Shown here: piece after piece, positions 32,581 through 50,588 of the stretch
Position numbering within the stretch: the first letter of the stretch is position 1
Layout of the letters: every line of letters starts with the position of its first letter
From: Octopus vulgaris
Taxonomy: Eukaryota
DNA: 64,000 nt
Reading direction: 5' to 3'
NCBI GenBank assembly: GCA_951406725.2
Contig: OX597818.1
Coordinates: forward strand, 95,666,001 to 95,730,000
Position numbers and translations under genes: made by a program
Notes under the pieces: model-generated
Seen by the model: only the letters and a program-made list of their open reading frames with translations
The model's database searches: none
Told to the model about the DNA's origin: nothing

Positions 32581-32701
32581 GTTGTTCGAGGTGACAACGA
32601 GTAGACGGCGCTTTCTACTTCCGCTTAGCCTCTTTCTCACCAGCGACATTAAGGTGGAAGCAGTGATTTCTACATCGCCAGCTTTTTAATCCATCAACAT
32701 C
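32581..32701. promoter_or_regulatory. RPL34: Compact bidirectional promoter for VTI1A/RPL34, including the RPL34 non-coding first exon (5'TOP)
   Basis: CpG-containing stretch; ETS-type ACTTCCG at 32617-32623; TCT/TOP-like pyrimidine runs at ~32629-32638 and ~32682-32687; donor c|gtaag at 32701/32702. Confidence 0.7.
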
Positions 32702-33563
32702 GTAAGAATTCTTCATTTTTCAAACTTATATATGATCTTGTTTTATTTGTTATTCGTTCTATTATGTTTGGGGCTATTTTTTTTATAAATGTATTTCCCT
32801 GTTTGTCACAATAGATTGTTCGTGTTTCGAAGCATGTCTCCTCCAACGATCCTGAAAGCACTCACACATTTACTTTTTTAAAAGTTATTCTCTCAATCAT
32901 ATTCACTAATTTCTAATAGATTTGATCTCATTTAAAATAAGATATTATAAGCTAAAATAAGGTATAAACAAAAATGCTTAATAAGTTCAGTATAGCTGAT
33001 CATAAATCATATAACCACAGACATGCACATTTGAACCACGCTGTTCTCTATAAAGACTATAAAACGTGTATACCTTGATGTCCAGTCGTCAATTTAGGTT
33101 CTAAATTCTGTATGAAAAATAGTTTCGAGCTATCTTTAATTTTGACCCTAAAATTCTTAGATATTTGCCAGAAAACTTAAAAGTAGCTTAGTAAACAAGT
33201 TTCAAACCCGGGCTTATCTTTAGATATTTCAACCCAATCTTTATATATTTTCTAGTGTGTGCTTCTTGAAATTAAAAAAAATTAAAAATCACCAAAGACC
33301 CCCAACAACCGTATCAGGATTTGAAATTAGAAAGGTGGCGTTATTGAGTTTCTCCTCACCGGCGGTGTGTATTAGAAATATACCATGTGTCTGAATTATA
33401 TTTTTAATTTAAAAGCCAACGTGGATGCCTCTACGGGATAGTTCGATCTGCGTGAAAAAACATTCAAGTTATCCCTACTGACATAATTTGGACGGAAGTA
33501 GAAAATTTAATTACTAGAAAGCAGTTTATCTTGTTCTATAGACTTTTTGTCTTACAGAAAAAA

Positions 33564-33856
33564 GTTTATTTATTGCTTCATAATAATTTTTAGTATAACA
33601 ATATATTGATGAATAATTTTTGTTTCTTCTGTTCAGAGGAAACCAATTAGAAGTATGATTACATAAATTGATCAAAACATCATTTCCCTGTAACCCCTCA
33701 TCACATAAATTTACCTCGTTGCATTGGTAAAGTGATGCTTGCGCGCCACACATTATTCTTCTTTACTAGCTAACATTTATTTTATATACATAAAATCCCG
33801 ATTGAAGAGAAATTTCTAAATTTTCCTCTGACTCTAAAAAAAAAACTGATTACCAC
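33564..33856 (+). repeat. ~290-bp direct duplication, copy 1 (RPL34 intron 1)
   Basis: Near-identical to 35203-35483. Confidence 0.9.
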
Positions 33857-34414
33857 CACCTTATCCATAACGTTTAGTATCTTAATAGATGATTATTGAG
33901 ATATGTAAAAGTTTAAAATACTTTAATTGTAATATACATTAAAAAAAAATTCTGCATTCTGAAAAAAACTTGTGAGAAGGGAGAATGATGTTTCTAACGA
34001 AAGTTATGAGGAAACAGTAGGAGAATTATGTGAAACAACTACAGTAAAGAAAAATGAATTTTACAATTTTTTTACGATATTATCGTAATCGACACCGTTT
34101 AAAATGTATTTAGAAAAATTCCATTTTCAAAATGTGCATTTTTAAGAAAGTTATGGGGAAACAAAATCAGGGGAGGTGACAAACTTTTACACTTTTGTAG
34201 TTTTGTCAAGGTATTTTATCGAATGAACAGTAAGCAGCAACTAATTGTAATCCATTTGTGTGCAGTGAGTGGATTTTAATTAATTGTTCATGTGTCTTGT
34301 TTTTCTTCAAATTTCATCTCACTTTCTAGTGTTCATATAACAGATTAAAGTTCATATGTATTTCTCCAACATCCTCTTTGGTAGAACTTTAATCAGACTC
34401 TTTCTAATTTCTAG

Positions 34415-34479
34415 ATGACTCAAAGACTTACATTCAGACGTCGACTGTCTTACAATACCAAGTCTAACCGAAGGAAGGT
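34415..34479 (+). CDS. RPL34: RPL34 (eL34) first coding exon; full CDS 342 nt = 113 aa
   Basis: ctag|ATG MTQRLTFRRRLSYNTKSNRRK(V)|gtaagt, the eL34 N-terminal signature. Confidence 0.97.
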
Positions 34480-35202
34480 GTAAGTATTTTAAATGTCTCT
34501 TTCAAACTTCTGAGCATTTTTTGCTTTGTGTCTATCATGTCTGCATAAATGAGATAGATTTTACATTTGATATACTTCCTGTCTTAGTGTTTTGGTCAGA
34601 CACAACATAAATGATATACAAGTGAGGTTACTATGTATGACTTTATGGTCATAAGCCAAACATTATAAACTTTGGTCATTTTCTTCTGTTTGAGTGATAA
34701 GGGAAATTGGAAGATAAATTACAATGTAAAGCTAAATTATCAGTAATTTTAGTTCATTAATTTAATGCTTTTTTTTCTGTAATCAAATTATTTAATTTAA
34801 GTGTAATCTAAGGGAAAACATAGAGAGAGATAACACCATGTTAACTTAACTTCACTGACTTTTAACCCCAAAAGCATTGGGATTTGCACTTACATAGCAT
34901 GGACAGCTGAGCACATTTTATGAAAATGAGACTACCATGCGCACAAGAAAAATAGTTAAAATACCTTCTTAAGTTTTATATCATCTGAAAAGTCATTAGT
35001 TGAACTATTAGTCCTCTTGCATTCTGGGGTGTATTGGAGTGTTTGAGTAACATTAGACCCCAACAAACGCCCATAAATTAAATGCAACTATCTGGGCCAC
35101 GATCGTGGCCTGTCGACCTGTGCTTGATGGCCATGATCATAGCCTGTTGTGCTTTAAGTGTTAATTTATCTAATATCTGTAAATAGCTTTTCCACTGTAT
35201 TT

Positions 35203-35483
35203 GTTTATTTATTGCTTCATAATAATTTTTAGTATAACAATATATTGATGAATAATTTTTGTTTCTTCTGTTCAGAGGAAACCAATTAGAAGTATGATAA
35301 CATAAATTGATCAAAACATCATTTCCCTGTAACCCCTCATCACATAAATTTACCCCGTTGCATTGGTAAAGTGATTGCTTGCACACCACACATTATTCTT
35401 CTTTACTAGCTAACAAATTTATTTTATATACATAAAATCCTGACTGAAGAGAAATTTCTAAATTTTCCTCTGACTGATTACCA
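35203..35483 (+). repeat. ~280-bp direct duplication, copy 2 (RPL34 intron 2)
   Basis: Near-identical to 33564-33856. Confidence 0.9.
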
Positions 35484-36047
35484 CACACAAACATATAGTT
35501 GTATATTGCTTTTGTACACTTTCCATGCTAGATGAATGCATGTTATTTCAGGCATGGTTTTGCAGCCAGATACTAACTCTTAAGCTGTTTTCCAAGTAAG
35601 GGAGTCTTTAACCTACTTGTCTTTAAAAGCTCAAATACTAGACAATTTGTTCAGAGAAATGTCAGCATCATTTGTAACTCAGCCTTTTTCTTTTTAGGCA
35701 TAGAATGTACATGTTGGGTTTAATACAGTTTCTGGTTACCAGATTCATTTACAAGGTATTGGTCAGTATGATGATGCAGTTAAAGAGTTTTAAACTTGTT
35801 CAAGTTGCCACACTGGGACTGAATCCAAAACTGTGCAGTTGCAAAATGAACCTCTTTACCACACAAACTTATATCTGGTTATAAGATAGCCTCATAGGAA
35901 AGAATCAAGTTGGGTTGGTGGTATCTCTGGTGTTGCATTTTAAACAAACTTAACTGAAAGATAATTTTGTTAAATGTTCATATTTGTGAAATGGCTGTAA
36001 ATTAACACATATTTTTATTTCTTTTCTGTGATGATGAACAAAAACAG

Positions 36048-36061
36048 CTCCAAGACCCCTG
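36048..36061 (+). CDS. RPL34: RPL34 14-nt microexon (SKTP)
   Basis: aacag|CTCCAAGACCCCTG|gtaagt supplies the conserved KTPG and is needed to keep frame between 34479 and 36640. Confidence 0.9.
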
Positions 36062-36639
36062 GTAAGTGTGTTATTCTTTGTTTTGTATCAAATATTAGTT
36101 TGTAGTGAAAGAGCTGATAGTCTATTAGAGATTTTGGAACCTGTTATAGAAAAAAATCTGACTAGTAGGTCTTTCAAAGTATCGAGGTTTTGATTTAGGA
36201 AAATAATTAGCAAGACAAGTCAATGAGAACTCTTTTTGAATGTTCGACCTGCTAGAAATAGCAACCAAGTTTCCCTTGAATCATACCTTAGTGACTTTAT
36301 TACATTTATACCCTATGTTCTGTTTTGGTTGTCTTCAAGGAACACCACATTTACAATTAGGATGAGACCTTGATACACAAATGACCAAATTCAGTATTGC
36401 TACTTGTGTTCTTATTTCAATATTTAAATATTATGGAGGTAAATAGTCCAGAACAATACACACATACAGAATATGAAAATAAGACTGATGATAACAAACC
36501 TACTAAAATGTTTACATTTACACTAATTCAGTGACATTTTTGTCAATAGAAAGATTTATTCACCATTCCATCATTAGATATGTGAACATCTTGGTTATAT
36601 TGTTTATATATATTGTTTATAATTTTTTTTTTTTTTCAG

Positions 36640-36719
36640 GTGGTAAACTTGTATATCTTTACGTAAAAAAACTCGGTACCATACCTCGATGTGGTGATTG
36701 CAAGGAACCTTTGAGAGGA
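36640..36719 (+). CDS. RPL34: RPL34 exon
   Basis: GKLVYLYVKKLGTIPRCGDCKEPLRG; AG/GT boundaries. Confidence 0.97.
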
Positions 36720-38645
36720 GTAAGTTGATATGTGTATTTTCCCTGATAAAGTGTTTGTACACAATGCCTTTTTCATTTTCCCATAAGACTGAAAACTAAT
36801 AAAAAACAGTTCTATAAAGATGTAGGTTGCCTACTTCGTTAGATCATAGTTTCTTGACCATTTACAGAAGACTTGTGTAAATTAGATACTAACTACTACT
36901 GTCCCTATCCTTTACCACTCATGTAATTAAGGTGGTGGCTGTAATTATTGAATGTAAATAACTTGAATGAGTTTATTAGGTACATTATTCATATATGGAT
37001 AAATATAGTAGACATTGTCTATTACTTGTGATTCCTGTTGCAAATAAATTTAGTATATTTGAATTAAAGACATGACTGCTATTATCTTTTATGTAAAGTA
37101 CATTCTTTGCTAATTTGGTTAAAATAAGCATAATATAGCAGGCATTGTTCATTAGTACAATAAAAGCACCTATGATAGAAGTAAGAATGATTCTATATCA
37201 TGCTTGAGTAGCTTTCCAGAACCCCTATATAACTTTATTCATTACTCCCATTCATATTTCCACCCTAATATAAATTTACTTGCTATCCTCTCAATGGTTC
37301 TTAATGTGCCATGTCCAGTAGAATGGATTTCATTGAGAATCACTGATCTAGATAAGAAACAAGCTGTCCACTCTGACAGCAATTTTCATTAGTTTTATTG
37401 GAATATAGTTTAAATTTTAAACATTCTTTATGGCTTAATCACTGGGAACTCTTATGCATATTATAAGCATCTTTAAAAGTATCCTACAGTATATCTAAAA
37501 AAATACTTGTAAAAGTCCTAGAATTTTTTTGATTGATACTGGACTCCCAACTACATGGTTGTTCCACGTTCAGTCCCACTGCATGGAACTTTGGACAGAA
37601 ATTTTTTATATGTTTATTGGGAAGAGTATTTCTTCAAAAAATCTGTCTTCTATTCAATTTGTGTCAAAATGCCTACAAGAGGTTCATCTCAATTTCTATT
37701 TCTTCTTTCTCATTTTTACTGCTTTTGACACCATTATATTCCAAACATCCATTTAATGACAATTATTCAAACTCTTATTTTCATAATTAATCCTTTAGCA
37801 TTCATATTACTCAGTCAAATGTAGTGCTTATTTATTCACCTTGTTTTGAATTAATCATACATTATCTTGTAGCTTCAAGATTTTGATGATGTGATTGTTA
37901 TTTCTTAGAATGACATTGTAGAATAGGTATGAGAGGTTGGGTCTAATTAGTTTGGGTTGGATATGGCTAGTTTAATTCAAAGTTAGTGTTTCAATGGAAA
38001 TATACTAACAAAATGGTTAAAATCTTTGTCAAAATCCAGTCAGTAGCATTTTTGAAAATGTCAGCCACAGAAACACTGGCTGTTAAAATTGTACACCAAA
38101 AGTTAATAAGAATTGTAGGCTGTTTTTCTGTGTGATTTAATGAATTTCCATCTTCCACTTGTTTCAAAGGAATGTGGCCATGCTAAAGCACTGCCTTGAA
38201 GAGTTTGGTTGAACAAATCAATCTCAATACTTATTCTTTTTAAAGTCTTGTACTATTTTATTGGTCTCTTACTGAACTGCTAAGTTAAGGGGCATAAACA
38301 AACCATCAACAGGTTAAGTGGTTGGGGACAAACACATACATATGATGGGCTCCCTCAATTTCTGTGTACCAAATTCTCTTACAAGAAACTTGCCCAAGGT
38401 GCTGTGCAGTGGGACTGAACCTGAAAACACATGGTTGCAAAGTGAGCTTCTTAACTACACATAGCTGTACCCAGCAATTTAAAATTTTATAAGGCAGTAT
38501 AAAATTCCATGATATCTTGTGAGGACTTACTAGCTAGCATGTTGTCACAAATACCTATGATGGGGAGACAAGCCACATAATTCATGCAACAAGATTTTAA
38601 TGTCTAAAAATTTGTGGTAACTTTTGTTTCATTTGTTCAATTCAG

Positions 38646-38749
38646 ATCACTCCAGCCAGACCCATTAAATGGATGTCTATGTCCCGACGACACAAGAAGG
38701 TATCCCGAGCATATGGAGGTTCGAGGTGTCACAAATGTGTTAGAAACAG
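38646..38749 (+). CDS. RPL34: RPL34 exon
   Basis: ITPARPIKWMSMSRRHKKVSRAYGGSRCHKCVRNR; 104 nt. Confidence 0.97.
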
Positions 38750-38952
38750 GTATGTTTTCACATTTCATACAATAAGATGCAAGTGTATTTTACAAGTTTA
38801 ATAGTCAGTGTCGCATTGATCTTGGTGGTTGTTTTCAGTTTCTTTATCCTGATCTTACTGGTTCCATAAGTCAGCAGAAAGGGTCGGTTGACAGTATGTA
38901 CTGAGTAGGTTTACACTGGTTTGTGTTTAAATAGTTATGGAAATATGATAAC

Positions 38953-39016
38953 CAGTCAATTACAATTAAGCACTGAACTGTAACTATCTTCTGAAAAGAG
39001 CAAGGCTCATTAATTT
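38953..39016 (+). pseudogene. Decayed paralogue of the C/D snoRNA
   Basis: cagtcaattacaattaagcactgaactgtaactatcttctga...gctcattaa aligns to the snoRNA; boxes are broken. Confidence 0.55.
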
Positions 39017-39159
39017 CTGCAGTGAATGTTGGGTAGCTGAATATCATGGGTTATCACTGGGACAAGCAGAATCTTCAATTGATTATTGATCTGTATTATC
39101 ACAGATCTGTGTAACATGGTTCACAGTTGAGCATAGTGTGTTATCCCAGATCAGTTATC

Positions 39160-39568
39160 AACTACTTCTAGTTTTTCTCCCTGGAATATGGCGGAAGTTG
39201 TTCTCTGCACATTTTCAGGTGTTTATTGCTCCTGAGCATCTGCCACATATAAAAACTATTTTCCCAGTTAGCCTTCTTTTGATATTGCTGCACCTCTTAT
39301 GTGTCCATAGCTTGCACTGGGTACATCTTATAGAGTTTCTACCTATGCCTTTTCTACAGATCGAGCAGGGCCAACTACCTGAAGGGATTTGTGGTTTGCC
39401 TGCCTTTCTACTTATTAGGACTTTGGTTTTGGCTAGGTTGACTCTAAGGCCCTTCGAACCCGAAGGACGAACATTATTATTATTATTATTACTTATTAGG
39501 ACTTTGGTTTTAGCTAGGTTGACTCTAAGGCCCTTCGATTCTAATCCTTGTTTCCACACCTGAAACTT
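39160..39568 (-). mobile_element. RTE (BovB-like) LINE fragment with internal ~50-bp duplication
   Basis: GLESKGLRVNLAKTKVL occurs twice, followed by WPCSICRKGIGRNSIRCTQCKLWTHKRCS, the Cys-rich insert of these elements. Confidence 0.8.
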
Positions 39569-39615
39569 ACAAATACACAGTTATGTATAGTAAAAATATA
39601 TTTAGCAATTACATG

Positions 39616-39684
39616 TCAAATATGATGATTTAAGCACTGGGCTATGACTAAATGTCTGATTCTAGTGTGCTTCACTGATTTTGA
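39616..39684 (+). ncRNA. Box C/D snoRNA copy 1 (SNORD88/snR76-like)
   Basis: C box ATGATGA 39622-39628; guide AGCACTGGGC; D' ATGA; D box CTGA 39675-39678; stem TCAAA/TTTGA. Confidence 0.88.
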
Positions 39685-40050
39685 AGTTTTTTTTAATATT
39701 TGTTACTACAACTATTTTATTTCGATAATCTGACATGTGTTCAAGCAATGAATTTATAAATTGCTTGGAGATCTAAATTTTTCTGCTCATTATTTCCAAT
39801 CAATCAATTCAGACAGTATTGTATCACTTGAGATGTTAACCTCAGATTAATTCATGGACTACGTTGGTGACTTGCAGCTATGTCTCCATTTGACACCTCA
39901 TTGACCAATGTGAGATCTGAAGTCATGAATACCATTGTACATTGTAGCTAAGTGTATTATGTCCTCATTCTGTGGGGATTAGGTTTCACAGCAATAAGAA
40001 TTAATCACTGTACCAATATCAGGAACATAAATATTTCAGTATACTACTAA

Positions 40051-40126
40051 TCAGTCAATTACAATGAATTAAGCACTGAACTGTGACTATCTTCTGAAAA
40101 GAGCAAGGTTCATTGATCTCGGCCTG
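40051..40126 (+). pseudogene. Diverged snoRNA paralogue
   Basis: C box changed to ACAATGA, guide AGCACTGAAC, D box TTGA. Confidence 0.6.
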
Positions 40127-41351
40127 CTTTTTAATAGTTGACTTATTCAAAGTTACACCAGATGTGGAATGGTTGTTTCTGTGTTGTGATGTATAGATGT
40201 CGTCCTCATTGTTTTCATGTCCACTTCTGTGCTGGCATAAACTGCATGGTTAGACAGGATCTAACTTGCCTAAGTCTCTAAATTTCGTGTCAGTAATTAT
40301 TGATTAGCTGATTACTAATGAAGCCCTAAATATCAGTGCAAACAGGGTTCTGTGGTTAAGCGAGTGTTACCACCATACAGGTGGTAGTCTGCATTTCCAG
40401 TTTTCTGTGAAAAGTTCTCCAGCTATAGAAAGTCTTTTGATGGAATTCCATATAAGTATGAAAAGTGGACATTGAAATTATGCATATATTTGTGTGTACA
40501 CAAACACACACACCGATTCTTGTTTATCACTGTGGTTTGGTTCTAAATAGTACAGTGATGAATAAATCATCTCCATGCTGGAATAAATGGTAGGTCAATT
40601 GACAGCAAACTTGCAGCTCTCAGCAGTGAAGCATTCAATGTTACATTTTCTTGATTATCTCCAATTTCTCATGAAGAGAGTACACTCATCTATTTCATTT
40701 GTTAGGATTAGGTACTTTTGTATTTTTCTTTCCACCTGTCCAATGTTGATGGGTTCAGCTACATGAATCCATGTAAAAAATATGTAACCTTGTAACAAAT
40801 TCGTGTAAAGACAAGCAATGATCAGTGAATATTAGGTAGCTGAATATCATGGGCTATCACTGGGACATGTTTTTATGATACAAGCTGAATCTTCAATTGG
40901 TTATTGATCTGTATTATCACAGATCAGTGTAACATGGTTCACAGTTGAGCATAGTGTGTTATCCCAGATCAGTTATAAACATGGCTATGTGTGTGCATAC
41001 CCATAAATATATAATATATATACACACGTGTACATGACTGAGTGCCTATTCCCCATTTTTTTTATATTTGTGCACTGATTATAAAGAAAAGCTTCACTTT
41101 ATATAAACTTTGCCATGTTGTTCCTCCCAAAAGCAAGTCTGAGTTTGTTGATAGATTGAGGGATTATTACCTTGCTTGGAAATAGGTAATGTTTGGCATC
41201 AAGAAGGACTCAAGCCATGAATATTCTACTGTAGCAGTCTCATTTGGTCTATGCAAGCATCGAAAAGTAGATGTTAAAATTATATACATACACACACACA
41301 CACACACATACATACATAGTTATGTATAGTAAAAATATATTTAGCTATTAG

Positions 41352-41427
41352 TTGTCAAATATGATGATTTAAGCACTGGGCTATGACTAATTGTCTGATT
41401 CTAATGTGCTTCACTGATTTTTGACAA
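41352..41427 (+). ncRNA. Box C/D snoRNA copy 2
   Basis: C box 41361-41367; D box 41414-41417; stem TTGTCAAA/TTTGACAA. Confidence 0.9.
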
Positions 41428-41767
41428 GTTTTTTAATATTTGTTACTACAGCTATTTTATTTTGATAATCTGACATGAGAAATTGCTTGGGGATCTAAAT
41501 TTTTCTGCTCATTCTTTCCAATCAATCAATCAATCAATTCAGTCAGTATTTTATCACTTGAGCTTAATTCATGGACTACATTGGTGACCTGCAGCTATGA
41601 TTTCATTTGACACTTCAGAGACCAATGTGAGATCTGAAGTCATGAATACCATTGTACATTGTAGCTAAGTGTATTATGCCCTCATTCTGTGGAGATTAGG
41701 TTTCACAGCAATAAGAATTAATCACTGTACCAATATCGGGAACATAAATATTTCAATATACTACTGA

Positions 41768-41844
41768 TCAGTCAATTACAATGAATTAAGCACTGAACCA
41801 TGACTATCTTCTGAAAGCTGCAAGGTTTATTGATCTTGGACTGA
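41768..41844 (+). pseudogene. Diverged snoRNA paralogue
   Basis: As at 40051; terminal TCAGTC/GACTGA stem present. Confidence 0.6.
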
Positions 41845-42354
41845 ATTTTTATATTTGACTAATTCAATGTTACACCAGATGTGGAATGGTTGTTTCTGTG
41901 TTGTGTTGTGAAATAAAGATGGTTTTGATGTCATCATTATTGTTTTTATGTCCACTTCCGTGTTGGCATAAGCTGGATGGTGAGGCAGGATCCAACTTGC
42001 CTAAGTCTCTAAATTTCATGTCAGTAATTATTGATTAGCTGATTACTAATGAAACCATAAATATCAGTGCAAACAGGGTTCTGTGAGTGTTACCACCATA
42101 CAGGTGGTAGTCTACATTTCCAGTTTTCTTTGAAAAGTTCTCCAGCCATAGAAAGTCTTTTTAATGGAATTCCATGGAAGCATTAAAAGTGGACATTAAA
42201 ATGATAGACCAATGTGAGATCTGAAGTCATGAATACCATTGTACATTGTAGCTAAGTGTACTATGTCCTCATTTGGTGGGGATTATGTTTCACAGCAATG
42301 AGAATTAATCACTATACCAATGTTGGGAACATAAATATTTCAGTATACTACTAA

Positions 42355-42431
42355 TCAGTCAATTACAATGAATTAAGCACTGAACTGTGACTATCTTCTG
42401 AAAAGAGCAAGGTTCATTGATCTCGGACTGA
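42355..42431 (+). pseudogene. Diverged snoRNA paralogue
   Basis: As at 40051; terminal TCAGTC/GACTGA stem present. Confidence 0.6.
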
Positions 42432-43651
42432 ATTTTTATATTTGACTAATTCAGAGTTACACCAGATGTGGAATGGTTGTGTTGTGTTATGAAGTAAAGA
42501 TGGTTTTTATGTCCACTTCTGTGCTGGCATAAGTTGGATGGTTAGACAGGATCCAACTTGCCTAAGTCTCTAAATTTCATGTTAGTAATTAATGATTATT
42601 TGATTACTAATGAAATACACTCTTTAATGTAAGTTGTCACTTGGTACTAGAAATAGTAATAAATGCAGTTGGTATTGGACAAGACCATAGATATTAGTGC
42701 AAACAGGGTTCTGTGGTTAAAAATGAGTGTTACCACCATACAGGTGGTATTGTCTGCATTTCCAGTTATTTGTGTAAAGTTCTCCAGCCATGTGAAAGTG
42801 CATCCAGAAAATCGTTTGATGGAATTCCATCTAATGTATATAAGCATGAAAAGTGGACATTGAAATTATGCATATATTTGTGTGTACACAAACACACACA
42901 CCGATTCTTGTTTATCACTGTGGTTTGGTTCTAAATAGCACAGTGATGAATAAATCATCTCCACGCTGGAATAAATGGTAGGTCCATTGACAACAAACTT
43001 GCAGCCCTCAGCAGTGAAGCATTCAATGTTACATTTTCTTGATTATCTCCAATTTCTCGTGAAGAGAATACACTCATCTTTCATTTGTTAGGATTAGGTA
43101 CTTTTGTATTTTTCTTTCCACCTGTCCAATGTTGACGGGTTCAGCTACATGAATCCATGTAAAAAATATGTAACCTTGTAAAACATTCATGTAAAGACAA
43201 GCAATGATCAGTGAATATTAGGTAGCTGAATATCATGGGCTATCACTGGGACATGTTTTTATGATACAAGCTGAATCTTCAATTGGTTATTGATCTGTAT
43301 TATCACAGATCAGTGTAACATTGGTTCACAGTTGAGCATAGTGTGTTATCCCAGATCAGTTATAAACGTGTGTGCATACCCATAAATAATATATATACAC
43401 ACTTATGTGCATGACTGAGTGCCTATTCCCCATTTTTTTTATATTTGTGCACTGATTATAAAGAAAAGCTTCACTTTATATAAACTTTGCCATGTTGTTC
43501 CTCCCAAAAGCATGTCTGAGTTTGTTGATAGATTGAGGGATTATTACCTTGCTTGGAAATAGGTAATGTTTGGCATCAAGAAGGACTCAAGCCATGAATA
43601 TTCTACTGTAGCAGTCTCATTTGGCCCATGCAAGAATCGAAATGTAGATGT

Positions 43652-43687
<36 letters not shown>

Positions 43688-43730
43688 TACATACATAGTT
43701 ATGTATTGTAAAAATATATTTAGCTATTAG

Positions 43731-43805
43731 TTGTCAAATATGATGATTTAAGCACTGGGCTATGACTAAATGTCTGATTCTAGTGTGCTTCACTGATTTT
43801 GACAA
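43731..43805 (+). ncRNA. Box C/D snoRNA copy 3
   Basis: C box 43740-43746; D box 43793-43796; stem TTGTCAAA/TTTGACAA. Confidence 0.9.
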
Positions 43806-44460
43806 GTTTTTTTAAATATTTGTTACTACAGCTATTTCATTTTGATAATTTGACATGAGAAATTGCTTGGAGATCTAAATTTTTCTGCTCGTTCTTTCCA
43901 ATCAATCAATCAATTCAGTCAGTATTGTATCACTTGAGATGTTAACCTCAGATTAATTCATGGACTACATTGGTGACTTGCAGCTATGTCTCCATTTGAC
44001 ACCTCATTGACCAATGTGAGATCTGAAGTCATGAATACCATTGTACATTGCAGCTAAGTGTATTATGTCCTCATTCTGTGGGGATTAGGTTTCACAGCAA
44101 TAAGGATTAATCACTACCAATATTGTGAACATACTACTTGTACAATATTTAGATTTGCCATCCTCTTGTCCTTCAGTTTTTGTTCATTAGTAAATTGTAC
44201 ATCTAACAAATTAATTCAAGTGTCATATTCTGGCAGTAAACTTGGGCACCTATAGTTGATAATTAATTTGAAATTGTCTTCTAAATGTATTGTGATGTTC
44301 TTTGCTCAGATATGCCAGTCTGTGAAATTAATTCCTTTAGATGGCTTATGACTTAATATTTGTATCTGCTGTAGGAGTTGGATTTTTGATGAGTATAAAC
44401 AAACAGGTTAGATTAGATAAAGTTTGTAGAAGGTTTGATATGCTATAATGTAGGTGTCTA

Positions 44461-44510
44461 TCGAATATGATGTCTTAGCACCAAGCTGTGAGTGAACACT
44501 TGATTCTAAT
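44461..44510 (+). pseudogene. Decayed snoRNA copy
   Basis: tcgaatatgatgtcttagcaccaagctgtga...tgattctaat aligns with the 5' two-thirds of the snoRNA. Confidence 0.5.
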
Positions 44511-44883
44511 TTCATTTCTTCATATTTTCTGCATTATTGGTGGGCTGATGTTATTATTGTGTATCTATTTGATATTTTATGTGAAATATTGTTGAATTAG
44601 GTGTTTATGGTTTCTGAAAGTTTTTGATATATGAAACTGTGGAACAATAACTTCCAGACCACATCATACCCTAATTGATTGACAACAGCCGCTTTGATTA
44701 GCCATTCCGAATCCTTCTTAAGACTGATACATTTCAATAACCACTAAATAATCACACTTCCCATTTTATTTTTGCTATTAACCATCCTCACAACCCCCTT
44801 CGTGTCTATGATGGGGCCATGAACTATAGATAAAACTGTAGAATGAAAGAACATGTAAATCATTTGGATGTTATTGAATTATG

Positions 44884-44957
44884 TGGTCAAATATGATGAC
44901 TTAAGCACTGGGCTATGACTGATTCTGATTCTAATGTGCTTCACTGACTTTTGACCA
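44884..44957 (+). ncRNA. Box C/D snoRNA copy 4
   Basis: C box 44893-44899; D box 44944-44947; stem TGGTCAAA/TTTGACCA. Confidence 0.9.
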
Positions 44958-45938
44958 GGTTTAGCTTATTGAAAAAATACACCTTCACGATAAGGTCTGG
45001 CCTTGTACCTTGTGGTCCATGCTGACTAACATTAGTTTCCCTGTATAAAAACTAAATCCACAACAGTAGCCAGTATTTGCTTCACAAATTTTCCAAACTT
45101 TGAACCCCCATTTTGTGTTTGTTAACAATCTGCGTAAATTTGTTTTCGAAGTGATCGCTTCAAACTAGCATACTGAAAAAAATAAAAGTCTAATGGTTTC
45201 ACTTCCTAAGAAAGACTATAGATAAACTTTATCTCAGAAAAATTACTAATAAAAACATTTTTAAAGTTTTTTACTTCATTCCTATGTAAAATCGTCTTCG
45301 CTGTCGCCATTGCCGATTTGTTTCTTCAGAATCGCTTTCATTTTCGGATAAAAAAAATCCTATTCATTATTTTGTACACCACGTGCTTTAAGACCTCATG
45401 CATTCTTTTTCTCGATATCTCCCTATTTTCCGTTGGAAAAGCTTTAAATTCGGATCAATGCTTGATAACATGAAACTCCTATCCATTTTCAAAGTTGAAG
45501 AAAAATCGATGCCGAAAAAAATGTGGAGAAAAATCTCCCAAAATTCACTGAGTTGAGATATCACGTCAAGCAATGTTGGATACTATAAGCTAACTATTTA
45601 CAAAGTGAAATCGCATGTTTTAACGAATGTACCAATGAGATTTGGGTTCAAATTTACATTTAAATAACAATAGGTTCTCACGGCCGGGTTGGTATTATAA
45701 ACCAAAAAATTTTTCGGCTGGGTTAGTAACGAAAGGGTTAAACTGGCCAGATCCAGCCTCACACACCTTACCTGAATCATTCTTACTCTTTTACTTGTTT
45801 CAGTCATTTGACTGCGGCCATGCTGGAGCACCGCCTTTAGTCGAGCAAATCGGCCCCGGGACTTATTCTTTGTAAGCCCAGTACTTATTCTATCAGTCTC
45901 CTTTGCTGAACCGCTAAGTGACGGGGACGTAAACACCA

Positions 45939-46010
45939 GGTCAAATATGATGACTTAAGCACTGGGCTATGACTGATTCTGATTCTAATGTGCTTCACTG
46001 ACTTTTGACC
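45939..46010 (+). ncRNA. Box C/D snoRNA copy 5
   Basis: C box 45947-45953; D box 45998-46001; directly abuts a truncated SINE. Confidence 0.88.
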
Positions 46011-46167
46011 AGGTTTAGCTTATTGAAAAAATACACCTTCACGATAAGGTCTGGCCTTGTACCTTGTGGTCCATGCTGACTAACATTAGTTTCCCTGTAT
46101 AAAAACTAAATCCACAACAGTAGCCAGTATTTGCTTCACAAATTTTCCAAACTTTGAACCCCCATTT

Positions 46168-46209
46168 TGACTGATTCTGATTCTAATGTGCTTCACTGAC
46201 TTTTGACCA
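46168..46209 (+). pseudogene. 3' half of the snoRNA (no C box, no D' guide)
   Basis: tgactgattctgattctaatgtgcttcactgacttttgacca only. Confidence 0.8.
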
Positions 46210-46520
46210 GGTTCAGCTTATTGAATGACACCACTCTTACAGTGGGCAGGATGAGATTTGAAGTTATGGCTATATGTGTCTACTGTAGCCCTTCTATCAG
46301 CTTAAATATGCTTTCTGCTTTATGACCACTTCCTGGAGTAATCTGATCTAATTTGTATAGCTAAGTGACTAATAGTAGACGCAGGAAAGAATTGACCTAT
46401 TAGAGGTTGCAGAATGTGTGTTTGTATATGTTTAGATGAGCACAAAAGGGATATCAAATATGATGTACAAACCCGTTAGTCATGGGTTGTAGAAGAATAT
46501 TTGGGTGTTATTGAATTACT

Positions 46521-46592
46521 TGGTCAAATATGATGACTTAAGCACTGGGCTATGATTTACTGATTCTAGCGTGCTTCACTGATTTTTGACAA
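46521..46592 (+). ncRNA. Box C/D snoRNA copy 6
   Basis: C box 46530-46536; D box 46579-46582; shorter spacer; flanks diverged from other copies. Confidence 0.9.
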
Positions 46593-47050
46593 GTTTCTTT
46601 CAATTTCACTACAGCTAGTTGGTTTTGATAATTTGATTAAGAGATAATAGTCTGAGTCATCTAAAGAAAATATGAACGAAACTAATGAATCAATAAATAG
46701 CTTGGCGGTCTGTGTTTGCACTTTGCTTATTCTTTCAAACTAACCTATATTTGAGACAACCTCTTTGCATTTATCAGCTTAGAGGCAAAGTCAGATTTTG
46801 AAACCAAGCATTGCAGATATTGCCCAGTGAATATCTTTATAAGGCCATGAAGATCAAATGTCCAAAGAGATCTGGGGTTTAGGAACTCTTGGCATGCTAT
46901 CAGTTGAATAGTTTGGAGTTTTGCATATATAGCCATATTATTTCAGTCTCTTATTTGCTTAATAATAATAGTGTATGTCATGTGAAGAGCATTTATTTAA
47001 AACTGTAGAATGAAAGAACATGTAAATTATTTGGATGTTACTGAATTATG

Positions 47051-47124
47051 TGGTCAAATATGATGACTTAAGCACTGGGCTATGACTGATTCTGATTCTA
47101 ATGTGCTTCACTGACTTTTGACCA
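47051..47124 (+). ncRNA. Box C/D snoRNA copy 7
   Basis: C box 47060-47066; D box 47111-47114. Confidence 0.9.
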
Positions 47125-47867
47125 GGTTTAGCTTATTGAATGACACCACTCTTACAGTGGGCAGGATGAGATTTGAAGTTATGGCTATATGTGTCTACTG
47201 TAGCCCTTCTATCAGCTTAAATAAAAGTGTTAATGGCAGTGCAGCAGATTGCCCAGAGAATGTTTATGTATTGCCATATTAGATATAGTATGGCCAATGG
47301 TGACTTAACTATACATTCCAACTTATGCTTTTATCAGATACTAGATGTCCAGTGTCGTCATGAAGCTCAGCCTGTAGGGAATTGGTTCACACCAATAAAG
47401 GAAAAAGAATTCATTGAATCAATGTCAGAAACAAAGGTTTTATATGTATCACTCAGCAGTATTTAGATTCACCAACTGCTGGTATATGGGTTCAGGTTTT
47501 TGGTCTTTTATCAAGTATTCATATAAAAAATGATTAGTTGAATGAAGTGTTACAAAGTTTGGTCATCTACAGTTTATTGGAGTTTCTTGTGATTCTTTTT
47601 GATGTGTGAAACTGCAGACTGGTAAAAGTTCATTGTAATAAATTTAATAGCTTTACATTATTTGAGATTCTTTGCTGAAAATTGTTTTTCTTTAAAAGCC
47701 AGTAGGATATACTGAGTTCATTTGAGTGAATATTAACAACCACTAGCAAATATACCTATCTACGAGGGAGGGAAGTCATAACAGCAGTATGTATTGAGAA
47801 ATGTGTAAATGGACTTGATAAATTGCTGGGTGATGTCTTAGAGTAATCACATTGTTGGTGATACAGC

Positions 47868-48871
47868 ATTCTATTGCAGCTATATGATGTGTTTGTGACT
47901 AAGTGACATGTGATAATGATTCACTCCCGAACTGAAATAGGCTCCCAGCTTCTGTATTATGAATGGTTTTGTGGACCACTCCTAACAAAAGCCAGAGCTT
48001 CCTTTGGCCACTACATAAAAAGTATTAAGAAAAGTTATTTAGATATACTTTTATTTTAGTTGTTTACACTATCTTACACTTGTTAATACTCTTATACATT
48101 CAAAGTTCACAAATTTCCTTATTTAAATTATGAATTGTATTCCTTTCAGTAATATCAATGATTACAAAACTTCTTTGTAGACAATATTTTCTGTTTGGTC
48201 AAATTACTGAAGTCACTACTCATAGTGACGTATAACTGGCTGTGTGTAAACATTGGAGTGGGTAAAAATACACCTTCACAATAAAGTCTGGCTCTGTGCC
48301 TTGTTTACTGTGAATGTGCAAGCAGAATCATTAGGGTTGCAAAAAATCAAACTAAGACTTATCTGTCATTGTTGTTTTCAAATAATGTCTGGATGTTCTG
48401 GTAACGTGGTTTATTTTGATTGACAAAACTGACAACAGCCGCTTTGATTAGCCATTCCGAATCCTTCTCAAGACTGATACATTTCAATAACCACTAAATA
48501 ATCACACTTTCCATTTTATTTTTGCTATTAACCATCCTCACAACCCCCTTCGTGTCTATGATGAGGCCATGAACTATAGATAAAACTGTAGAATGAAAGA
48601 ACATGTAAATCATTTGGATGTTATTGAATTATGTGGTCAAATATGATGACTTAAGCACTGGGCTATGACTGATTCTGATTCTAATGTGCTTCACTGACTT
48701 TTGACCAGGTTTAGCTTATTGAAAAAATACACCTTCACAATAAGGTCTGGCCCTGTACCTTGTGGTTCGCAAAACCATTCATAATACAGAGGCTGGGAGC
48801 CTATTTCAGTGCAGGAGTGAATTGTCATCACATCACTTAGTCACAAACACGTCATATAGCTGCAATAGAAT
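47868..48871. repeat. ~110-bp inverted repeat pair (47868-47979 / 48762-48871) enclosing snoRNA copy 8
   Basis: attctattgcagctatatga...gaatggttttgtggaccac versus gtggttcgcaaaaccattc...tcatatagctgcaatagaat. Confidence 0.85.
48634..48707 (+). ncRNA. Box C/D snoRNA copy 8
   Basis: C box 48643-48649; D box 48694-48697. Confidence 0.9.
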
Positions 48872-49573
48872 ATGAAAATCCAGAGTTGCTCGTGGTCAGT
48901 GAATATTTAATAAAAATGCAAAGGTAGTTTATCAATTCAAAAATCGATATCCATCAAATAATCATACTCTATGATTTTTTAATGCTAAAAACCTTCCTGG
49001 CAACTGTATTTGTAATCACCCAAAATATCGTAACCATTAGTCCAGCTGTCTGGCTGTGAAGGGGGAACAAAGACAGACAGGTGGGCATAATGCCCATTAT
49101 AGTAAGATAGCACATCTGCCCATCTACAATGGGAAATACAGGGATAGTATTGCAATTCTAAACCCCCTAAATTCGCCAAATATATGGTGGGGAAATCTAG
49201 AGTTAATCCTCGTCGTTAGAGTTTTAACAAAAAAAAATCAAAGGTGATTTATTAATACAAAACTCAATATCCACTAAATAGTCATACTTTTTCACATTTT
49301 TCTTAAAAACCTTCCTGATTACCTCTTTCATAATCTTGAAAAGCATTGTAACCATGGTCCAGCCATGGAAAGGGAACAGACAGACAAACGGACATAATGC
49401 CCATTATAGTAAGATGAATGTATTTAGTTGATCCAGCCAAACCAATCTATTGGTTTGGCTGTATCAACCAAAATGTTTATAATAATTAGTCTATGAAACT
49501 GAAGACATAATCAAAGAATTTTGGGTGTACTGTATAAGGGTTATAAAAAATTTTCGTTTGGTGTCATTGAATT

Positions 49574-49648
49574 GGTCAAATATGATGACTTAAGCACTGG
49601 GCTATGATTCACTATTTTGATTCTAGTGTGCTTCGCTGATTTTTGACT
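49574..49648 (+). ncRNA. Box C/D snoRNA copy 9
   Basis: C box 49582-49588; D box 49636-49639; distinct spacer and flanks; guide unchanged. Confidence 0.9.
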
Positions 49649-50509
49649 GAGTTTTTAACTAATTGAATGAGAGATGGTTTTGGTTCTTTGGCAATGCCCT
49701 GTTTTAGTCTTAACTGCAATGGTTTGATCTGGTTAACTTCTAGATATTATGGTATTGATCAGTTGATCACCTAAGAAATATTCTGTCCATTGTAACTTTT
49801 TTTTTTGTGATTGTTAATCATATATGCATACACATTTTTTTACTGCATTCACATGACAGCTTTCCCTTTCATGCTGAATTAGTTAACTAGATAGTGTAGG
49901 CCTTGTGATACCAGCCTGTCCAAGATGGCCTCTGGTCCTGAATAACTTAGTAATCAATCAACCTTCATTTAAATTCCTCTAAAAAATGTATTAAGCATCA
50001 AAATTCCATTGTAATTTTATATACAAATTCTGGTCAGATGTTATGGTCAGGAACATATCCTATGTTAACATTGCTAATTTATCAGACTTCTGATAAAACA
50101 CTGGGTTGCTGTCTAACTTCAGATTCAGATGTGCTTTTTCAATTAATATCAAACACAAATGAGCCTCTGTTAAGTTACTAGAAATAGCAGTCAAATCTCT
50201 ACTATCTTAATAAGTTAGTTGTAGCTGGAATGTCTTTTTAGATCAAAGCTTAGGCTTAATTAGCATAAAATACTATTCATTTTGTAAAATATTTTAATTA
50301 ACCTAATGTTGAAGAAAGGAGACTTGTCATTACGTTTTATTTTCATTGTATTTTTGCTGTGATCAATCCCAAATCTTTTGAATCTTTCATACAGTTTACC
50401 TGACTTTTATCTCTATCATCCAGGAGTATCATCAGCAATTTTTTATACTCTACCCATTCTTCTGTGTATTTTTTTGTATTACTATGAAACTTTTTTTTTT
50501 ATTAACCAG

Positions 50510-50588
50510 GATTGTACGTGCATTCCTTATTGAAGAACAGAAGATTGTGGTCCGTGTACTGAAGGCACAAGAAGGCATGAAAAAATAA
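50510..50588 (+). CDS. RPL34: RPL34 last exon
   Basis: ccag|G IVRAFLIEEQKIVVRVLKAQEGMKK*. Confidence 0.97.

Follow-up and report, generated by a model that had tools for sequence, protein, structure and literature searches.

A SNORD88-type array of nine box C/D units in the last RPL34 intron of Octopus vulgaris, and multi-snoRNA introns in other genes of the same genome

The predominant rule for small nucleolar RNAs (snoRNAs) of animals is one snoRNA per intron, and intronic clusters form a defined class (PMC11028025). We describe here a window of 64,000 nt of the Octopus vulgaris genome (contig OX597818.1, positions 95,666,001 to 95,730,000, forward strand) in which the last intron of RPL34, a ribosomal-protein gene, carries nine box C/D units of SNORD88 type (c1 to c9, Table 1). 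With at least two snoRNA genes in one host intron and on one strand, the nine units fall within the intronic clusters as PMC11028025 defines them. An earlier note on this DNA, which spoke of an undescribed polycistronic snoRNA system, therefore went too far. As read from the sequence, the RPL34 array is a real intronic cluster of SNORD88-type guides that would be new by its class (C/D), its size and its apparent genome-wide spread, and a new processing system for it is plausible.

The clusters described in Drosophila are likewise made of paralogous copies in introns of coding, often ribosomal-protein, genes. The 60 of 355 intronic-cluster rows of Table S1 of PMC11028025 on which these comparisons rest include the ten paralogous H/ACA snoRNAs Psi18S-525a-j of Arpc2, the dom cluster Psi28S-3316a-e and the three C/D snoRNAs Or-CD11a-c of RpL28. 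They also include top-2 of C. elegans, which resembles RPL34 in having several C/D snoRNAs in an intronic cluster of a coding gene, but has three of them (K12D12.6-8). The large Drosophila arrays in these rows are H/ACA, whereas the RPL34 array is of C/D class, its nine copies being separated by spacers on the kilobase scale and all lying far from the splice site. Drosophila C/D loci are described as mostly one per intron and H/ACA loci as clustered (PMC3089462), and four C/D isoforms lie one per intron at ~70 nt from the 3' splice site (PMC1821038). The mammalian long non-coding RNAs capped by snoRNAs (sno-lncRNAs; Prader-Willi region, SLERT) also come from spliced introns with more than one snoRNA. 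Theirs are two snoRNAs whose product is the long RNA between them, whereas the RPL34 units are a canonical guide of ribosomal RNA (rRNA) for which no other source was detected. Plant clusters have several snoRNAs per precursor, also inside introns, as in RPL34, and studies in rice reportedly describe both polycistronic and intronic snoRNA clusters. Those of plants are compact and often mixed, unlike the RPL34 array, which is animal, homogeneous and spread over 10 kb. A literature search with most subscription papers outside its reach returned nothing on the organisation of cephalopod or mollusc snoRNAs and no large C/D array within a single intron of an animal.

The closest single snoRNAs are human SNORD88A, B and C, which share with the RPL34 units the guide next to box D', the brevity of the C-to-D' stretch and, as seen in the Rfam consensus, a GUGC motif in the 3' half. 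Human SNORD88 copies sit one per intron; the host here is RPL34, with nine copies in one intron. Yeast snR76 is found in the polycistronic snR72-78 cluster and is described with an additional base-pairing element between D' and C' (PMC3116282).

All nine units are on the sense strand at the positions first reported: the 14-mer TTAAGCACTGGGCT occurs nine times on the forward strand and never on the reverse, against a chance expectation of 0.0003 in the window. Every unit has a box C (RUGAUGA) near its 5' end and a box D (CUGA) near its 3' end, as box C/D RNAs do. The invariance that had been claimed for boxes and guide is confirmed, with box C (ATGATGA), guide, D' (ATGA) and D (CTGA) unchanged in 9/9. 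A terminal stem had been assigned to each unit; it is firm in eight (-8.2 to -14.2 kcal/mol) and cut to ~5 bp in c1 (-2.8 kcal/mol). The compensatory change read into this stem exists, as T-A in c2 and c3 and G-C in c4, c5, c7 and c8, but it concerns a single pair and a single event, and c6 has a G-A mismatch and c9 a G-U pair at this place. The C-to-D regions of the nine units fall into five sequence types only.

The guide is identical, letter for letter, to the consensus of the Rfam SNORD88 model (RF00604), which all nine units match with 22.8-33.3 bits. Its target was sought in the 18S, 5.8S and 28S sequences of ribosomal DNA fetched from the same genome. The guide makes 10/10 Watson-Crick pairs with 28S at a site that occurs once in the three rRNAs, and base D'+5 faces the third C of GCCCAGUGCU, as proposed before the genome's own 28S was consulted. 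We take the methylation sites of human SNORD88 and yeast snR76 to be equivalent. They are 28S Cm3701 (3680) in human (PMC5597630) and 25S position 2197 in yeast (PMC3116282). These data support the view that the nine units would work like SNORD88 in guide and target site, without being formal Rfam members. A second, D-side guide was also considered and dropped, its best pairings being of 8-9 pairs including G-U, different among copies and without a convincing target.

Searches of the genome (2.8 Gb in 227 contigs) returned ten DNA matches, every one inside the last RPL34 intron, while a pattern search for the guide gave the nine units and two lone matches on C2 and C16 (control, 0). The latter have no array flanks and were counted as probable chance or unverified matches. 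Since neither the DNA nor the pattern search found a convincing further copy elsewhere in the genome, the RPL34 intron is most likely the source of the guide for the SNORD88 site. Of the 47 loci from a pattern scan of metagenomes, tblastn detected RPL34 in none, and they are plant-like homologues or chance matches; one metagenome contig (L016:2149-2746) has two plant-like C/D snoRNAs with an identical guide 574 bp apart.

The RPL34 exons, including a 14-nt microexon, encode an intact 113-amino-acid protein. That the array lies in one last intron holds: it runs from GT to AG over 11,760 nt, and the exon-exon joint skipping it is present in contigs of 3/3 RNA-type runs (X1, X3, X10) and missing in a fourth run, presumed to be DNA. 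The RNA-type nature of the runs is a guess, the material being assembled contigs of long-RNA type. The microexon, present in RNA contigs, has a purine-rich stretch ahead of its acceptor. RPL34 introns 1 and 2 share a 270-bp block, 96.7% alike (33563-33832, 35202-35474), with neither an Rfam match nor an unusual fold. Run X10 (organism label B) has ~118 extra bases at 46807, between c6 and c7, where a contig of X20 also ends; this is likely an insertion polymorphism.

Self-comparison of the intron gives the history of the array. The cores of c4, c5, c7 and c8 are identical and embedded in blocks of 140-340 bp with 98.5-100% similarity. Units c1-c3 belong to segmental duplications of 86-92% similarity, and there the core shows no significant conservation beyond that of the flanks (variable columns 2/57 versus 31/349, p=0.13). 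The block around c4, 342 bp copied from the c8 region, was inserted in a repeat that runs unbroken elsewhere in the genome; c5 and a half copy stand behind a repeat fragment, and a few bases are shared at their junctions, from which we infer that both arose by local template switching. All four near-identical duplications of the 3' half overlap a snoRNA, with a chance of 1e-4 to 3e-4 if the events are independent, two of them possibly being a single event. Across c3, c4, c6 and c9, the guide and boxes C, D' and D have no variable column among 25, compared with 12/33 of the other inside columns (p=4e-4) and 24/33 of the near-flank columns (p=3e-9); for c4, c6 and c9 alone, the conservation of boxes and guide has p=6e-5. 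The 3' flanks of c3 and c6 can be aligned over ~75 nt and are therefore homologous and diverged. The nine units represent four old lineages together with recent local duplicates, short local duplications having taken the copy number from four to nine. The description of spacers and flanks varying around fixed boxes and guide applies to these lineages.

The inventory of nine was right but passed over six relics among them: B copies, four in number and diverged, the single copy C and a half copy (Table 1). The B and C copies are 61-78% alike to intact units, with broken boxes and a mismatched guide. Since they lost boxes and guide bases, copies do decay in this intron, and the four lineages did not. 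Copy C was not recovered by nhmmer. Possible new targets of the B and C copies, sought in rRNA, reach 7-8 pairs at most. A B paralogue (e.g. 42354-42432) has a closing stem of other sequence and a fairly good fold (z about -2), which suggests that it worked for a time after divergence. The duplicated spacers and the upstream introns have no notable Rfam match and fold z-scores of -0.2 to -0.9.

Such birth and death, displayed by six relics, could mean that one copy, probably c9 as the closest to the 3' splice site, does the work, the remaining eight having been carried along by local duplication without so far decaying. The recent origin of five copies, the lack of significant core conservation in c1-c3 and the expression of roughly one in three annotated human snoRNAs (PMC10234308) all agree with this possibility. 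We find it decidedly unlikely, because three lineages besides c9 hold 25/25 functional columns while flanks and spacer diverged, and because the young duplications of the 3' half all overlap a snoRNA. The likeness of some blocks, up to identity, might also raise the suspicion of an assembly artefact, and no listed contig covers c4-c5 or spans the entire intron. The blocks are, however, short and nested, with distinct junctions, and the local surroundings of c1, c6, c7, c8, c9 and the half copy recur in contigs from the runs of four studies, so that we give an artefact virtually no credence.

The layout is not confined to RPL34, and the earlier note understated its scope. All four ribosomal-protein hosts examined (RPL34, RPL4, RPL7A, RPL13A) have an intron with at least three C/D snoRNAs, the introns of RPL4, RPL7A and RPL13A holding 3-5 each. 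Both ends are mapped for four introns, and in these the distance between the end of the last snoRNA and the 3' splice site is 870, 1,592, 429 and 1,312 nt. Seven further C/D families gave a genome-search result (SNORD18, SNORD36, SNORD33, SNORD31, U14, SNORD15 and SNORD57), and 4/7 are locally amplified to at least three copies. The RPL7A intron (L057:2527-5584) combines two SNORD24-type copies, 76% alike, with the only SNORD36 match of the genome; these two copies retain boxes and guide, and a further SNORD24-type copy is present in the upstream intron. The RPL13A intron next to that of the SNORD33-like copies has three copies of another 28S guide. Two RPL13A paralogues (L068) carry an altered base in the D-side guide. 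For the host of the SNORD31 array, no Pfam match above cut-off was obtained in the 133 of 187 open frames scanned. Local duplications cover 35-80% of four arrays and 0-9% of ten controls, a comparison that is partly circular, the arrays having been picked for having copies.

The U14 locus may be of another kind. Each intact U14 copy is followed by a weak acceptor 61-102 nt downstream, so the copies possibly lie one per intron, and the cluster probably sits in a non-coding multi-snoRNA host. This locus also contains a U25/snR56-like RNA, with a 14-nt match to 18S, and another C/D candidate. The long open frame upstream of the cluster (L060:8746-9789) resembles, we assume, a mariner-type transposase. 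SNORD15 is not arrayed: it has two distant copies and one with a poly-A tail. The copy at L067:5040-5165 (G000:C19:20191539), followed by a poly-A run, is probably a retrocopy of the C21 gene. A C/D candidate is seen at L065:3692, and SNORD57 gave no match in the genome.

The problem of freeing several copies from one intron, raised in the earlier note, is real. The remark that even the nearest copy is far from the 3' splice site is borne out, the D box of c9 ending 870 nt upstream of it, and 0/9 copies have a 3' splice site ~60-90 nt behind, such as hidden exons in a one-per-intron host would require. No acceptor is found 40-130 nt behind any of the nine (best scores -5.3 to 0.7, background median -1.1) with a simple matrix that gives 7/8 true acceptors 1.9-10.1 and misses one. 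The sole AG|GT with a good acceptor, at 39218, is upstream of all copies. No splice inside the intron appears among the 15 of 341 contig joints listed, and RNA-type contigs continue unspliced from c6 to c7 and from c9 to the last exon. A CAG|GT right after the lineage II stem was rejected as a recursive site, since it is missing in other lineages and its donor is weak. The hidden non-coding exons or recursive splice sites that had been suggested, which would give each copy its own intron in minor, fast-degraded transcripts, thus have no sequence support in RPL34. The small share of joints listed, contigs that drop rare variants, and the U14 locus, where such a layout may exist in the same genome, speak for them; with the acceptors absent and the contigs unspliced, we regard them as very improbable.

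Independent promoters are common for C. elegans intronic snoRNAs, and a promoter for each copy, independent of the host transcript, would also remove the problem. One upstream 7-mer is common to 5/7 families and seen in 2% of controls, but the corresponding 6-mer and 8-mer tests are not significant (20% and 83% of controls), which makes a shared upstream promoter motif unconvincing. Moreover, every copy is sense to the host and c5 was copied without its upstream flank, leaving own promoters as a most improbable solution. The main product of the intron could instead be a sno-lncRNA capped by the outermost assembled copies, the mature guide being minor, as is known for mammalian introns with two snoRNAs (PMC11028025). 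This is very unlikely in RPL34: the guide is invariant too and not the boxes alone, another source of it was not found, and the spacers consist of repeats and recent duplications pieced together.

The explanation that we tentatively prefer, while holding it short of probable, is that of a locally amplified SNORD88-type guide family, co-transcribed with RPL34, several guides of which would be freed from one spliced intron by cuts and trimming. Each unit would fold into a kink-turn, with a terminal stem of 7-8 bp closing it, and load the C/D core proteins without aid from a nearby branch point, in a splicing-independent assembly. A terminal stem can reportedly make up for a distant branch point, and this distance ranks low among predictors of snoRNA expression (PMC10234308, PMC4150776). 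After splicing and debranching, an endonuclease would cut the 0.5-2.4-kb spacers and trimming would proceed to protein-protected ends, so that one intron would yield several guides, in the manner of the clusters of plants and Drosophila. Guide dosage would be the likely benefit, with these snoRNAs no longer held at the splicing-coupled position in this genome.

A version without a new nuclease is that copies so far from the branch point assemble only occasionally, that mostly one small nucleolar ribonucleoprotein forms per intron molecule and that ordinary exonucleases trim to it through the empty copies. Extra copies would then raise the chance of one assembly, which would put selection on several of them. 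Known machinery alone would in this way account for the conserved lineages, for the remoteness of the 3' splice site and for the absence of a common cleavage structure. We consider it unlikely, given that the strong terminal stems of eight copies predict efficient assembly (PMC10234308) and that the single SNORD36 of RPL7A, behind two intact SNORD24 copies, would be penalised. By either route, cut-and-trim or low occupancy, several copies would give mature guide from one intron, and this broader statement we hold, on sequence grounds, to be rather probable.

Several points weigh against cutting and trimming of many guides from one intron. An endonuclease signal was not detected, flanking stems being better than those of shuffled flanks in 1/9 copies only (c6, p=0.05), and extended external stems were discarded as a general feature, being no better than shuffled flanks in the other eight. 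Introns with two snoRNAs give in human a stable sno-lncRNA and not two snoRNAs (PMC11028025). The Rfam check that had been proposed matched every unit but below the curated cut-off of 46 bits, by 13-23 bits, with ~72 nt compared with 91 model positions. The selection test uses few columns with a partly uncertain flank alignment, and 5/9 copies are too young to display selection of their own. The limits of the RPL4, RPL7A and RPL13A introns were set by coding continuity instead of RNA, and the second RPL13A intron was followed over part of its length only.

Table 1. Coordinates of the array, its host gene, relics and the arrays of other loci (window positions unless a locus is named)
Feature	Position	Strand	Box C start	Description	Basis
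c1	39615..39686	+	39622	SNORD88-type box C/D unit, shortened terminal stem, lineage I	Rfam 23.1 bits
c2	41352..41427	+	41361	8-bp terminal stem, lineage I	Rfam 26.7 bits
c3	43731..43805	+	43740	8-bp terminal stem, lineage I	Rfam 25.5 bits
c4	44884..44957	+	44893	within 342-bp block copied from c8 region into repeat, lineage II	Rfam 33.3 bits; joints 44673/44674 to 45017
c5	45939..46010	+	45947	heads 231-bp exact copy of c4 and 3' flank, behind repeat fragment, lineage II	
c6	46521..46591	+	46530	extended flanking stem (p=0.05), lineage III	Rfam 22.8 bits
c7	47051..47124	+	47060	core identical to c4, lineage II	self-comparison, Rfam match
c8	48634..48707	+	48643	core identical to c4, lineage II	self-comparison, Rfam match
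c9	49574..49648	+	49582	closest to 3' splice site, lineage IV	Rfam 24.9 bits
Half copy	46168..46226	+		3' half only, no box C or guide; 141 bp copied from the 3' half of c7 and its flank	
B0	38952..39025	+		decayed paralogue, box C gone	
B1	40050..40128	+		diverged paralogue 64-68% alike, broken box C, two guide mismatches	nhmmer E 7e-7
B2	41767..41846	+		diverged paralogue	nhmmer E 6e-6
B3	42354..42432	+		diverged paralogue, own closing stem	nhmmer E 8e-7
C	44460..44530	+		likely decayed paralogue: box C kept, guide altered, box D gone	by eye and pairwise alignment, 62-69% alike
RPL34 host gene	32620..50588	+		start approximate	113-amino-acid translation
RPL34 5' non-coding exon	start approximate, end 32701	+			loose end of RNA contigs
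RPL34 coding exons	34415-34479, 36048-36061, 36640-36719, 38646-38749, 50510-50588	+		36048-36061 is the 14-nt microexon	translation; microexon also as loose end of RNA contigs
RPL34 last intron	38750..50509	+		array host, 11,760 nt, GT..AG	joint in runs X1, X3, X10
RPL4 SNORD18 array	L059:2384-9360; copies G000:C3:75046562-75051771			five copies in one 6,977-nt intron	in 250-730-bp duplications 95-98% alike
RPL4 upstream intron	L059:765-839			decayed SNORD18 copy	
RPL7A copies	L057:1772, 2871, 4308, 5095			SNORD24-type and SNORD36	
RPL13A array	L068, G000:C3:898000-907900	-		three SNORD33-like copies and fourth paralogue in one 4,585-nt intron	
SNORD31 array	L062-L063, G000:C6:131056400-131067086			nine copies over 10.7 kb, seven near-identical	in patchwork of 200-600-bp duplications
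U14 cluster	L058:1350-7643			six copies and two relics (one truncated, one decayed)	

A wider reading covers the arrays of RPL34 (nine), RPL4 (five), RPL13A (three to four, and three), RPL7A (three, mixed), SNORD31 (nine) and U14 (six). According to it, the lineage would have dropped the splicing-coupled one-per-intron route of C/D snoRNAs genome-wide, in favour of multi-snoRNA introns, a dedicated endonucleolytic step and dosage tuned by local amplification. This is possible but doubtful. As far as we could find, the release of several snoRNAs from one animal intron is an unsettled matter, for which a genome whose four examined ribosomal-protein hosts all carry multi-C/D introns, none at the splicing-coupled position, makes a natural test case. 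The five C-to-D sequence types of the RPL34 array could tell apart release by an endonuclease, low occupancy and the case of one functional copy; in the last case the array would be a curiosity of local duplication. A single intron here displays both birth and death of snoRNAs, and its duplications are centred on snoRNA units.

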